From sequence record NC_135728.1: a stretch of DNA of 64,000 bases. One strand, written 5' to 3'. This DNA is from a phage. The notes beneath the pieces are model-generated. The model had not been told where the DNA came from. It searched no databases and saw only the letters and a list, made by a program, of their open reading frames with translations. Positions 2,792 through 42,936 of this stretch are shown here, in pieces. Every line of letters starts with the position of its first letter. Position 1 is the first letter of the stretch. Made by a program: the position numbers and the translations under genes.

Positions 2792-3709
2792 ATGATGAAG
2801 TATTTTAATGCAGATGACCTAGTAGACAAAGGTCTTGTAACCAGTCGGTATTATCCAGATCTTGGATTAAAGATCTATAAATATGCCAGAAAAGTATTCT
2901 ACAACAATCTGTGGCATTTGTCTCCGCGTTTACTGGAGTGCCGAGGTATTGTTGTTGGCAATGAGGGGAATGTTGTGGCATGGCCTTTCACAAAAGTATT
3001 CAACTTAGGAGAAAACTCCACCAACCTACCGGACAGTAAACTTGTTACTGCGGTAGAGAAAAAGAACGGATTCCTCGGTGTGGTATCATCTCATAAAGGT
3101 GAACTATTGTTCTCAACAACCGGGTCTCTTGATTCCCCATATTGTAACCTCGCAAAAGAAACCATCAGGGAGCAATGTGGTAATTTAGATCTTATCAAGA
3201 AGGTTATGGGCAATGAAAACATGACATTCATGTTTGAAATTTGCCACCCTTCAGATCCGCATATTGTTCAGGAAGATCATGGCGCATATTTGATAGGTTG
3301 CAGATATAATGATTCTGGAATAATGCTACCAGAAGCAGCTTTAGATGGGATTGCCAAATACCTTGGTGCAAAACGTCCTCACACTGTGCGTGAAATTCCG
3401 TTCAGCTATGCAAAAGAATTAGCTGCAGAAACAAGAGGTGAAGGGTATATGATTCGTAAGCCTTACTACCCTTATGATCTGCAGCTGAAGATCAAGTCTC
3501 CATACTATCTGGCACGGAAGGCAGTAATGAGGGGTAAAGCTTGGAAGATTTGGGATGATGATATCTTTAAACGTGTTGACGAAGAGTTTTACGGTATGGT
3601 AAAATTTATTCGTAGCAACTATACAGAAGATGTGTGGAATTGCTTATTAGAGCAGGAGCGTCGTGAGATACTGGACTACTATTTCCACAACGAGGACTAT
3701 ATGCAATGA
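2792..3709 (+). CDS. ATP-dependent RNA ligase-like nucleotidyltransferase (Rnl1/Trl1-type KxNG motif)
   Basis: Motif I-like EKKNGFLGVV (cf. Trl1 KANG, T4 Rnl1 KEDG); GAGGAA RBS before ATG 2792; divergent from the kinase/phosphatase genes. Confidence 0.55.
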   Translation: MMKYFNADDLVDKGLVTSRYYPDLGLKIYKYARKVFYNNLWHLSPRLLECRGIVVGNEGNVVAWPFTKVFNLGENSTNLPDSKLVTAVEKKNGFLGVVSSHKGELLFSTTGSLDSPYCNLAKETIREQCGNLDLIKKVMGNENMTFMFEICHPSDPHIVQEDHGAYLIGCRYNDSGIMLPEAALDGIAKYLGAKRPHTVREIPFSYAKELAAETRGEGYMIRKPYYPYDLQLKIKSPYYLARKAVMRGKAWKIWDDDIFKRVDEEFYGMVKFIRSNYTEDVWNCLLEQERREILDYYFHNEDYMQ

Positions 3710-39997: not shown

Positions 39998-40346
39998 CAC
40001 ACAATTAGTTGCCCGGCTAAAGTGCTGGGAGCACCCATAACACATCTTTCAACTAAATTTCCTACCACCACAATCACTTACCTCCCACACATGACTGTTT
40101 GCTTGTTTAGTGAGCAGTCATGCCTTGACATTCTTGCCTATCCTGATAAAATTAAGTTCTTCTCTTTTCTTTTACCGAGTAATTCGGGTTTTCTGTTCTC
40201 TTCGGTTTGAAGGGGTATGGAGATACACCTGAGTGAACAGGGTGAACAACCGAACCATTGGCTATGGCATTAGCATGGCGAAGCGGACGGGTGACGAAAG
40301 AGGGGCCGGAGGACACCAGTCACTGCCATATGATATATGGGTGATA

Positions 40347-40865
40347 ACCTGAAGAGTCTGAATAAGTGTTTAAGTACCAGTCAGAGGAAAAGGTGAATGG
40401 TAGCCGAAGGGGGAGGGGGGTTACCTGCTTCTGTAAACATGCATCTGAAATACTACTTTAGATAACCTGAACCTGCCTTTCTGACAAATATTCCCTATTA
40501 AACTTGAATTATTTATAGAAAATACCACAACACCACTTAAGTCTTTGATTTTACACACAAATCTTACAGATATTAAACCTCTCTATTTAACATACCTGTA
40601 ACATATACTATACTCCACCTGTCTGATCAATTTCCCCAACTACATCCCCATATTTTCCCTGTCTGTACTACCCCTGCCCCGCCGGGAGTCCCGTCATATC
40701 TGGCTTTCCAGCAAATATCACACCCACAAATATCATCACCTGAAGAGGGTTTCATCCCATAATACATGCCTTACCTGAAGAGCGCTTCATATACCCCGTA
40801 AATTTTTTAATTGACCCCCTCCCCGCCGCCGGAGGGGTTGGCTTTTCCCACACAAACCTGAAGAG
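40347..40865. repeat. dispersed direct repeats of ACCTGAAGAG (4 copies)
   Basis: Copies at about 40347, 40738, 40773, 40856; ACCTGAAC variant at about 40463. Confidence 0.5.
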
Positions 40866-41425
40866 TCAGCCAGAAATATCTGAACAGCCAGTTATACCAC
40901 GATTTTGTGCTTGTCCTACAGGAGTGCTTCCCTGTCAGGAGCCGGTAGCGACTGGAGTGCTGCCAGGCGGACGAAATGGGAATACTTCTCATTCTTATAA
41001 CAATTCTCAAATATCGAGGCAGTGAGGCAAATTAATAGGTGAGGCCGTTCACACAGTGGCACAACATTTGCAACCTATCTTGTGGGATTGAATGAGAATA
41101 CCTATCATTGTGAGAACTGTTATCATTACGGGCAATTTAACATAATACCCATTATGCGCACCACTGGCGATACATACAGGGATTTATAACATGAGTTACT
41201 GTTTACGTATATAACAATTATATTTCTTACTATTTGTGTGGGATATAGTTAGCAGCCGATAGATTAGATATTGACCTGCAGACTTCCAACCGTCTAGACG
41301 TCTAAACGCCCACACAACAAGGTTTATACATACATTACTGAATGTAAACAGGGCCGCAAAAATGCTACCATACAAGATTGTAAATTTTTCATGCAGCACT
41401 TGACAAAGAGGAGAAAAACTTGTCT

Positions 41426-41505
41426 GACACTTTAGACACAATAGTGACATAATATGACACCTTTGACACACTGGACACATTAAACATAATTGACATGCCT
41501 GACTG
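41426..41505. repeat. iteron-like array of GACA(C/T) repeats phased every 9-11 bp
   Basis: Eight copies: GACAC, GACACA, GACAT, GACAC, GACACA, GACACA, GACAT, GACT. Confidence 0.6.
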
Positions 41506-41540
41506 TTTACATAGCTAACTATTTACTAAAAAATGATAAG

Positions 41541-41852
41541 CCATGCCATTCGTTTGCATGATAAAGATTAGCAAGTTAATAATCTTTCGCTGGCTATGCC
41601 AGGTGACCTTTGGTCACCCCTTCGGGTGTTTCTATGACATAATATAAAAGCAGGGCAACTATTAGCAGATCATAGTTGCCTTGCTTGTTAACACCCTTGA
41701 GACGAAGGCTTTGCCTGAGTTTATGTCATGATTAACTAAATACAAGGCAACTATGATCTGATTAATAGTTTGCAGACAAACTATCACGGGGGTGATGGTT
41801 ACTGCTTTTATATTATGTCGCGACTCCGTCGCGCCATGCCATTCGTTTGCAT
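41541..41852. repeat. nested repeat complex: 19-bp direct repeat, 18-bp inverted repeat and internal palindromes
   Basis: CCATGCCATTCGTTTGCAT at 41541 and 41834; GACATAATATAAAAGCAG (41636) inverted at 41802; GGTGACC-TTT-GGTCACC; GGCAACTAT-N9-ATAGTTGCC. Confidence 0.6.
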
Positions 41853-42477
41853 AGTTGCCTTATTGTTACGAATAAAACAATTGCATTGTTAATGATTTCT
41901 TATCTTTCTCTTAGTCATCTAATGATTCCAGTCAGTCTAGTAATGTACAGTAAACATTAGACGACTAAAGATTTCCCTGTTTATGATAACTCACCGTGAT
42001 AATTTCAGGCTGTTTACTAAAAATGTTGACACCTAAGCTGATTTATGTTATGCAGTTTACACGAATAATTATTTTATGCAGGTATTGACTATTCCGTTAT
42101 TCTATGGTTGGAATAAATACTTAGCAGACTATAGAATGGTGAGCGTACGTAAATTCTGAGATCTGGCGGCTATAGTTATACTCGATTTTTCACGTAGAAC
42201 ACGCTTTTGTGAGTGTGTAAGTGTATGACTTATAAAGATTTTTAGTTGTTGACAAGATATTGAAGATGTGCATCAGGTTAAATTTTGTGCAATAGCGGCA
42301 TTACGTGCAATTCTGAGAGAGAAAACGGGTAAAAATGGCCCTGCTACCACAAGATGAAAGATTATGCAATAGTTATTTTTATATGTATATTTGTACAGTA
42401 GGGTTAATTGCTGGCTTGTTGATTATTCCACTTGCCAGGTGGGGCCGTTTGTGGTAGGAGAAATACAGACAAAAAGA

Positions 42478-42508
42478 AAGGGGCCTTTTAAAGCCCCTGA
42501 TAGTTTAG
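42478..42508 (-). terminator. rho-independent terminator of the leftward block
   Basis: On minus strand GGGGC-loop-GCCCC followed by TTTCTTTTT, just past gene 42517-42936. Confidence 0.6.
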
Positions 42509-42516
42509 TTAAGAAA

Positions 42517-42936
42517 TTATAATGATTCGTATATTTCAAAAATCCGATTTGCCAGGTCGTTACGGTAGCGGAATTTTTCCTCACGTTTGATCATCAGATC
42601 TTTAAAGCCATATTCTTTAAGCACTTCATTAACTTTATGGCGGCATACCTTCATATTATCTTGTGCGTCACCAATAAACTTGTTGCTATGGTGCATGGCT
42701 TTAATTTCTTCTTCCAGGACCAGGGCAACTATGCGGACCGGATCAAGCTGATAGGCGGTAACATCAATGCGGCATTGTAAACGGCTTTTTACGTCTGCCA
42801 CCGGATATACTGCAACCTCTTCCCCGTCAACATTGACAATAATTAGTTTACCATCGATTTCGAATCCTTTCGCCGCCGGACCGTGACAAAAAGCGTTATC
42901 AAAGCTATATGCCGGATTATTAGATTTAATGTTCAT
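42517..42936 (-). CDS. hypothetical protein
   Basis: Track ORF; AGAGGT RBS. Confidence 0.5.
   Translation of the reverse strand: MNIKSNNPAYSFDNAFCHGPAAKGFEIDGKLIIVNVDGEEVAVYPVADVKSRLQCRIDVTAYQLDPVRIVALVLEEEIKAMHHSNKFIGDAQDNMKVCRHKVNEVLKEYGFKDLMIKREEKFRYRNDLANRIFEIYESL

Follow-up and report, generated by a model that had tools for sequence, protein, structure and literature searches.

A conserved base-paired element beside the probable genome termini of rV5-like phages: a candidate strand-specific structure with counterparts in five other genera

What does the long non-coding interval of rV5-like phages contain, and in which form might its repeats act? The question arises from a stretch of phage DNA of 64,000 nucleotides (nt; record NC_135728.1), here called the window, for which an original prediction had described nested direct and inverted repeats at 41541–41852. 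Comparison of the window with phage records gave 119 matches at 80–95% identity, nearly all of them classified or named as rV5-like (Vequintavirus), and these matches identify its source as a Vequintavirus, an rV5-like myophage of Escherichia coli. In rV5, the locus is an unannotated interval of about 2.5–2.6 kilobases (kb), on which gp158 from the plus strand and gp159 from the minus strand converge. The rV5 genome paper (Kropinski et al. 2013, PMC3606486) shows it as a box labelled 'non-coding' at 104013–106618, which corresponds to approximately 40000–42515 of the window. The absence of open reading frames (ORFs) is all that was reported for this box; no termini, repeats, or structure were described, and the genome was treated as circularly permuted. 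The present analysis finds in this box a strongly folded element at 41633–41832, located a short distance to the right of what appear to be the genome termini.

The repeats of the original prediction are present with small corrections. The direct repeat is 20 base pairs (bp) long (GCCATGCCATTCGTTTGCAT) rather than the 19 bp proposed, and the perfect 18-bp inverted repeat was found exactly where it had been placed. All palindromes reported between its arms exist, but GGTGACC-TTT-GGTCACC (41602–41618) lies outside these arms, though between the direct repeats. It belongs to an optional insert that also holds CACCC-CTTC-GGGTG (41615–41628), a hairpin that is terminator-like on the plus strand. 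Two features had been overlooked, namely a second perfect 18-bp inverted repeat (41666–41683 / 41743–41760) and a fourth site (41851–41859) of the motif GGCAACTAT. The 64 kb contain five copies of this motif where 0.49 would be expected, and four of the five fall within 206 bp; the clustering of the repeats is not due to chance. At 41671 the window has a 1-nt deletion relative to all 13 element-bearing aligned relatives (GATCATAG versus GATCTATAG), and therefore a repeat that is interrupted in those relatives becomes the perfect second pair here.

Both strands were folded, as had been suggested with the original prediction. As top-strand RNA, 41633–41832 reached −92.6 kcal/mol compared with −42.9 ± 3.9 in shuffled sequences (z −12.7). 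Folding as single-stranded DNA gave z −13.2, and the bottom strand gave z −10.7. Among 1596 overlapping 200-nt windows of the 64 kb, this segment ranks as the most structured (GC-adjusted z −6.0). It folds as one long branched, imperfect hairpin closed by the 18-bp inverted repeat, which is termed P1. The inner helix, of about 30 bp, is made of inverted GGCAACTAT sites. Each of its arms is itself a palindrome, and therefore local hairpins and the long-range helix are alternative folds.

Counterparts of this element occur in other genera. When each locus was searched for perfect inverted repeats, essentially one large repeat was found in the corresponding non-coding region. Five genera besides Vequintavirus (Septuagintavirus, Seunavirus, Mydovirus, Henunavirus, and Phapecoctavirus) carry a perfect inverted repeat of 15–22 bp that encloses hairpins, and this closing-stem architecture was found in the A73, PVP-SE1, 4MG, GAP31, Mydo/KPP-1, FENT2, pEp01, and Mt1B1_P17 lineages. 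P1 differs in sequence among them (Table 1), and every variant has a perfectly complementary partner arm. In Klebsiella phage KPP-1, P1 starts at position 3639 of the locus analysed, 309 bp to the right of the mapped end of the direct terminal repeat (DTR) at 3330. The order shared by Seunavirus, Mydovirus, and Henunavirus is P1, P2 (CGATCA..), P3 (GTGTTATCGTGGC / GCCACGATAACGC), a variable region, P4, GAGTTAC, and the 3' arm of P1. In Proteus phage Mydo (locus about 1700–1760), P4 is enlarged by an insert of about 53 nt, which forms further hairpins of its own; hairpin tips therefore tolerate insertions.

Within Vequintavirus the stems are invariant, and covariation was therefore assessed in other genera. 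The covariation set consisted of 12 sequences of the Seunavirus/Mydovirus/Henunavirus type. RNAalifold recovered the P1–P4 structure from these sequences. The comparison with related phages that had been proposed alongside the original prediction showed that 13 of 52 pairs changed on both sides, compared with 5.9 ± 1.4 in shuffles (0 of 500 reached 13) and at most 6 in slid controls. In an explicit pair count, 96.3% of the cells were paired, and the covariation score was 0.182 versus 0.075. Stems P1, P2, and P4 covary, and P3 is invariant in these genera. Symmetry that is kept with a different sequence, together with compensating changes, indicates that a base-paired structure of about 150–260 nt is under selection.

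The element of the window occupies the same position as its counterparts, in a non-coding gap that begins at the DTR and ends at the first minus-strand gene, and a few hundred bp separate it from the right edge of the DTR. Its P1 (GACATAATATAAAAGCAG) fits their pattern, which consists of 15–22 bp, a GACAY.../GCCAC... 5' arm, a central ATAA/ATAAAA, and 60–220 nt of enclosed hairpins. P4 and then GTTAC precede the 3' arm of P1, and ..CGCGCCA follows it (...GTGATGGTTAC-TGCTTTTATATTATGTC-GCGACTCCGTCGCGCCAT); the KPP-1 equivalent of this segment is ...TTGAGTTAC-TCCCGTGTTATTGTGTCGCT-CGCTACGCTCGCGCCAC. The inner helix GYGTTATCGTGGC / GCCACGATAACGC and the P2 stem (starting CGAT(C/T)A) of the other genera were not found in Vequintavirus, which has GGCAACTAT-based palindromes instead. 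In nhmmer searches, a profile of the 3' segment of the other genera reached window 41799–41837 only at an expectation value (E) of 9.6, and the 5' and whole-element profiles gave no match. The Vequintavirus element is thus best described as a variant of the same architecture and not as a proven homolog.

Conservation within the genus was assessed in an alignment of the window with 14 relatives, and identities were calculated from 13 of them, leaving out phage FV3, which is without the element. Identity was 98.6% in the left part of the core (41633–41687), 99.4% in its right part (41743–41819), and 100% at 41820–41861. The right flank (41862–41945) showed 92% identity, and the repeat arrays at 41425–41539 showed 61%, with a variable copy number as well. 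The few variable positions of the core are confined to loops and the apex; P1 and P4 do not vary. The insert of 33 bp at the apex is apparently present in only 9 of 117 core-bearing records, as judged by the 95–99% identity band. The symmetry is conserved in related genomes, since 117 of the 119 Vequintavirus records keep the core and the five other genera keep the architecture.

The two core-less records include FV3 (NC_019517.1), the sole phage in the set of 119 for which loss of the element was established. This phage shows a precise deletion of 41560–41852 between the 20-bp direct repeats (FV3 locus about 2160–2200), and its single repeat copy is a hybrid that combines the variant base of the left copy with the flank of the right copy. 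The hybrid copy indicates a deletion. The gap could be a real loss, or it could be a deletion that arose from cloning or polymerase chain reaction across a strong palindrome. Judging by FV3, the element may be dispensable.

The direct repeats also raise the explanation that the locus is selfish or neutral DNA, either a small mobile element with a 20-bp duplication or a functionless palindrome perfected by template-switch correction. The repeats do flank the element, FV3 resembles an empty site, and the core is more uniform than its flanks, as after a recent sweep. However, each genome carries a single copy, the arms of the inverted repeat stop 76 and 13 bp short of the direct repeats and do not form the element ends, counterparts occupy the same position in genera without nucleotide similarity, and the hybrid repeat of FV3 indicates deletion. 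An exact-pattern scan of 185,579 bacterial and archaeal species genomes found no copy of the element, and its metagenome matches occurred only in contigs of 137–138 kb, the length of a whole phage genome. A mobile element or insertion sequence was rejected, as dispersed copies are absent and the repeat geometry is wrong for a transposon. Selfish or neutral DNA is altogether a very improbable explanation.

The location of the element gains meaning from the genome ends. The record of phage Gotham has a repeat_region annotated at 1–459 and 136567–137025, at both record ends; its base 1 aligns to window 40966, and its final base aligns to 41424. Several independent records begin at the base matching window 40966. 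In KPP-1, read coverage and PhageTerm placed a DTR of 514 bp, and packaging is of the T7 type (PMC9862379). The boundaries of the two repeats are similar, on the left with ..GCTA/GACGGAC in KPP-1 and ..GCCA/GGCGGAC in Gotham (the slash marks the boundary), and on the right with CTTGACAAGGAGAGAGAATTGTGT and CTTGACAAAGAGGAGAAAAACTTGTC, respectively, as the last bases. The KPP-1 DTR region has its top local match in the whole window within 40966–41424, at a roughly matching offset (E 0.003), and global alignment of the KPP-1 and window DTRs gave z 5.2. The Gotham annotation, the shared record starts, and the KPP-1-like boundaries together indicate that the non-coding box of rV5-like phages holds the genome termini. 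Measured rightward from the DTR, the distance is 116 bp to the left direct repeat and 212 bp to the closing stem P1. One published announcement describes Vequintaviruses as circularly permuted, and the literature is inconsistent on circular permutation in Vequintavirus genomes. The record of Shigella phage CM1 (MK962749.1) contains a perfect 523-bp tandem duplication (locus 1067–2112) that comprises the DTR and the adjoining array of GACAY motifs; either CM1 has a longer terminal repeat or both copies were kept by assembly.

In all 16 lineages compared, the window among them, the more stable fold is that of the top strand, which leads away from the DTR. Its margin over the bottom strand is 2.8–17.9 kcal/mol with RNA parameters and 1.7–6.1 kcal/mol with DNA parameters. 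The folds contain 69 G.U/G.T pairs on the top strand versus 37 on the bottom strand. P3, which is invariant in all other respects, includes a U.G pair in 10 of 12 sequences, and P4 also has G.U pairs. An argument for DNA from missing wobble pairs in P1 was dropped because the independent pair states were too few for significance. These predicted folds suggest that one strand is the relevant one and argue against a purely symmetric cruciform. The original prediction had offered a large cruciform or a structured RNA of about 180 nt; a base-paired structure is borne out, and a symmetric two-strand cruciform as the sole functional form is disfavoured by the strand bias.

The favoured reading, which is held tentatively and at less than even confidence, is that the element, as the Vequintavirus version of a palindromic multi-hairpin architecture that recurs in the whole subfamily, is a cis-acting structure of top-strand DNA that acts in replication or concatemer processing beside the DTR. 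The structure, its conservation, the compensating changes, the strand bias, and the proximity to the DTR are observed; DNA rather than RNA as the functional form and the role in replication or processing are inferred. When single-stranded, the top strand would fold so that the 18-bp P1 encloses the inner helix built of GGCAACTAT sites, and P4 would immediately precede the 3' arm of P1. On the right side of the DTR, this strand would be displaced when a 3' end that is annealed to the DTR, or invades through it, is extended rightwards, and the same strand would also be displaced when a fork crosses the concatemer junction rightwards. The folded strand might be the place where the phage primase-helicase loads or primes. 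Alternatively, a nick just beyond P1 might allow the top strand to fold back and serve as the primer for leftward copying of the DTR. In this second option, the nick 3' of P1, snap-back through the 18–22-bp stem, and leftward priming would provide a second DTR copy per junction by a parvovirus-like 'rolling hairpin'. Such a step is improbable; if true, it would be a new way of making ends for a myovirus.

The strand bias and the G.U pairs are also what an RNA would show. The element may be a structured non-coding RNA of approximately 190–330 nt that is transcribed rightward from the genome end and belongs to a new trans-acting family, for example of regulators, anti-defence decoys, or replication primers. 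P1, P2, and P4 covary, and apices tolerate inserts. The window has a near-consensus match to a sigma-70 promoter, TTGACA-16-CATAAT (11/12), at 41463–41490, 146 nt upstream, and an invariant TTGACA stands about 140 nt upstream in the 12 sequences of other genera. P4 with its U-rich tail could end transcription, and an accessory RNA would agree with the viability of FV3, which has no copy of the element. However, the sigma-70 match of the window falls within a hypervariable array and has no equivalent in Gotham, and the conserved TTGACA of the other genera has no usable -10 box at 16–18 nt spacing. A conserved upstream sigma-70 promoter was therefore rejected, and its absence upstream of the element in both Gotham and KPP-1 was counted in favour of the DNA reading. 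In KPP-1, part of the conserved TTGACA block reads as a weak minus-strand terminator. A stop at the P4 terminator would leave the 3' arm of P1 incompletely transcribed and the perfect P1 unexplained at the RNA level. In addition, a fully Watson-Crick closing stem of 15–22 bp would be an RNase III substrate, which was counted against an RNA. The element has no Rfam match. Rfam 15 gave no match on the window up to E = 1 except for a sub-threshold suhB-like hit at 42464–42532, which overlaps the terminator behind the gene at 42517–42936. Rfam found nothing on four counterpart loci, and ARAGORN found no transfer RNA (tRNA) in the window. A known RNA family and a tRNA or transfer-messenger RNA were rejected on these negative results. 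A structured RNA is a close rival of the DNA reading, held with somewhat lower confidence.

Several points weigh against the DNA reading. The top-strand bias is equally compatible with a rightward transcript and with displaced top-strand DNA, and P4 together with the adjoining ACTGCTTTTATATT resembles a plus-strand terminator. The cumulative GC skew peaks at about 39–40 kb and has no minimum there, so that the switch in strand composition typical of an origin was not found; the rV5 authors ascribe such a switch to the direction of transcription (PMC3606486), which would account for the peak. The sequence similarity between Vequintavirus and the other genera is not significant by itself, and therefore common descent rests on position and architecture. 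Finally, FV3 is a propagated phage without 41560–41852. An essential cis role or essential packaging signal is unlikely unless it is redundant or the FV3 deletion is artefactual, and a redundant or accessory role is possible.

In another explanation, the duplex is a protein-binding platform. Here, the GGCAACTAT half-sites and the GACAY motifs (CCACGATAACGC in other genera) would be iterons or operators, the hairpin potential would be a by-product of inverted sites, and a phage initiator, the small terminase, or a regulator would be the candidate binder. The GACAY array itself may be bound by terminase or another protein. The locus has features of an iteron-type origin, with four GGCAACTAT sites, seven GACAY motifs, and a lowered G+C content (0.377 versus about 0.43 elsewhere). 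GGCAACTAT is strongly over-represented and clustered, and the GACAY array is phased at 9–11 bp and recurs at the outer ends of P1. The 11-mer TGACATAATAT occurs at 41445 in the array and again at 41635, at the start of the closing stem. In the other genera, P3 is invariant and does not covary, and its 3' arm is directly repeated downstream. In contrast, P1, P2, and P4 change in sequence and remain perfectly paired, and binding sites need no such pairing; a consistent strand asymmetry is also unexpected for duplex recognition. A duplex platform is an improbable explanation.

A further explanation is a bidirectional terminator or insulator between the two converging gene blocks. In the rV5 paper, bidirectional terminators were anticipated between genes 163 and 164 but could not be located (PMC3606486). 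In the window, a plus-strand hairpin is followed by TTTTATATT, the shared 18-nt tail is U-rich both ways, and a terminator is annotated here in the records of Murica (minus strand) and Alma. A terminator scan scored a plus-strand site at 41779–41800 with only 3 G-C pairs, but no minus-strand site was scored inside the element. Both converging blocks have stronger terminators of their own, 0.65–0.8 kb away (plus strand, 40816–40837; minus strand, 42498–42479). The other genera have poor U-tracts after their hairpins, and no terminator was scored at the KPP-1 element. Moreover, a perfect long-range stem of 18–22 bp is not needed for termination. A terminator or insulator is less probable still than the duplex platform.

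Table 1. Features of the locus in the window, and the 5' arms of the closing stem P1 in other lineages.
Feature	Position in window	Strand	Sequence	Remarks
Direct terminal repeat (DTR)	40966–41424	.		459 bp; Gotham annotation and shared record starts; single copy in the window, as at a concatemer junction
Seven GACAY motifs	41426–41496	+		9–11 bp spacing; starts 2 nt beyond the right DTR boundary; variable number of copies among relatives
Short repeats	41502–41526	+	ACTGTTTAC / ACTATTTAC	2 copies in the window, roughly 10 in rV5
20-bp direct repeat, left copy	41540–41559	+		98.8% conserved (13 relatives); left breakpoint of the FV3 deletion
Optional insert	41596–41632	+		Two small GC-rich hairpins; in about half of the aligned relatives
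P1, closing stem, 5' arm	41636–41653	+	GACATAATATAAAAGCAG	Invariant in 13 relatives
Inner helix, 5' arm	41654–41683	+	GGCAACTAT-N9-ATAGTTGCC	Includes this palindrome; inverted-repeat search, fold
Optional 33-bp insert	41688–41720	+		Hairpin apex; directly observed in the window, rV5, and A147
Inner helix, 3' arm	41743–41773	+	GGCAACTAT and degenerate ATAGTTTGC	Inverted-repeat search, fold
P4 side hairpin	41779–41800	+	AACTATCAC-GGGG-GTGATGGTT	One T.G wobble; followed by A and then the P1 3' arm; invariant in 13 relatives
P1, closing stem, 3' arm	41802–41819	+	CTGCTTTTATATTATGTC	Inverted-repeat search, fold
Small hairpin	41820–41832	+	GCGAC-TCC-GTCGC	Leads to the ..CGCGCCA motif common to other genera
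20-bp direct repeat, right copy	41833–41852	+		Right breakpoint of the FV3 deletion
Fourth GGCAACTAT site	41851–41859	-	GGCAACTAT	Overlaps the end of the right direct repeat
P1 5' arm, Septuagintavirus A73			GACACTATAAAACGAG	16 bp
P1 5' arm, Seunavirus PVP-SE1			GACACTATAACACGAGAG	18 bp
P1 5' arm, 4MG / GAP31 / FENT2			GCGACACAATAACACG..	19–20 bp
P1 5' arm, Mydovirus Mydo / KPP-1			AGCGACACAATAACACGGGAG	21 bp
P1 5' arm, Henunavirus pEp01			GCCACCTATAAAAGCAAGTAG	21 bp
P1 5' arm, Phapecoctavirus Mt1B1_P17			GCTAATAATAAGCCA	15 bp; different subfamily

A small protein-coding gene at the element was considered and rejected. The ORFs at 41662–41787 (minus) and 41770–41892 (plus) had no PHROG match, and frame-breaking one-base indels occur inside them among relatives, at 41671 and, in Murica, in the G-run at 41788. 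The non-coding sequence that adjoins the DTR on its left holds four exact copies of the 10-mer ACCTGAAGAG, all on the plus strand (40347, 40738, 40773, and 40856), and no further exact copy was found in the 64 kb. The first gene to the right of the non-coding region is the minus-strand gene at 42517–42936, the homolog of rV5 gp159. Its protein is about 90% identical in Phapecoctavirus phages, which belong to a different subfamily, and the gene is not annotated at the corresponding position in Gotham, PMBT16, or FV3. This high identity across subfamilies and the patchy annotation suggest a dispensable gene that was recently exchanged. Far from the element, 1146–1231 holds four tandem units of 21–22 nt, each with the internal palindrome GTGTCCGT-AT-CACGGACA, in the gap between ORFs at 643–1302. 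It ranks second in the window for structure (z −4.3) and has the appearance of a set of operators to which a dimeric DNA-binding protein would bind.

In the literature, no published description was found of the element, its conservation across genera, or its link to termini, and no Vequintavirinae transcriptome was found. The locus was previously known only as an unexplained non-coding box. As candidates for therapy and biocontrol, the rV5-like phages and relatives of the PVP-SE1, KB57/KPP-1, and phAPEC8 types are in wide use. Fixed termini next to a covarying, strand-specific structure would provide a deletable target for studying how replication starts and how terminal repeats are duplicated and cut. 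If the element is an RNA, it would add a new phage RNA family. For annotators, it is a landmark by which genome starts can be set consistently.

Among known systems, the described region closest in style and position is 'Repeat Region 3' of phage T5, a proposed injection-stop signal located where the left terminal repeat ends on its right side (Davison, bioRxiv 10.1101/866236). Like the element, it is non-coding, straddles or adjoins the inner edge of the left terminal repeat, contains nested direct and inverted repeats, palindromes, and a tandem array of short repeats, and is conserved in relatives. In contrast, the T5 terminal repeat is about 10 kb long versus 0.46 kb here, there is no sequence similarity, and two-step injection is not known for rV5-like phages, unlike T5. 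Eight ordered DnaA boxes are the defining feature of the region in T5, and such boxes are not enriched here. With the pattern TTWTNCACA and at most one mismatch, 12 were found in 2.7 kb at this locus, compared with 3.2 per kb across the window, and none of the 12 was in the element. A DnaA-box organization of the T5 type was therefore rejected.

A second comparison is offered by phage T7. During T7 infection, hairpin DNA containing the terminal repeat is formed and has been used in models of repeat duplication (Chung and Hinkle 1990, cited in PMC4281155). Like the rV5-like phages, T7 has a short direct terminal repeat that is duplicated from a single junction copy before packaging, and in both cases an inverted repeat beside the terminal repeat can give hairpin DNA. 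The hairpin-ended DNA of T7 was seen in infection; the hairpin of the Vequintavirus element is a folding potential of the sequence, and the element is branched and far larger. In T7, the hairpin arises at the opposite side of the terminal repeat. A third comparison is with single-strand initiation signals and origins, such as those of the phiX174/G4 type, ssiA and ssiB of RSF1010, and plasmid sso, which are strand-specific folded DNA of about 100–200 nt. They work only when their strand is exposed, and their conservation is stronger in structure than in sequence. These signals come from single-stranded DNA or rolling-circle replicons and are defined by primase or RNA polymerase priming assays. 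In kind, the element resembles both the regions of repeats and palindromes that lie close to phage termini and the folded DNA signals that act on one strand.

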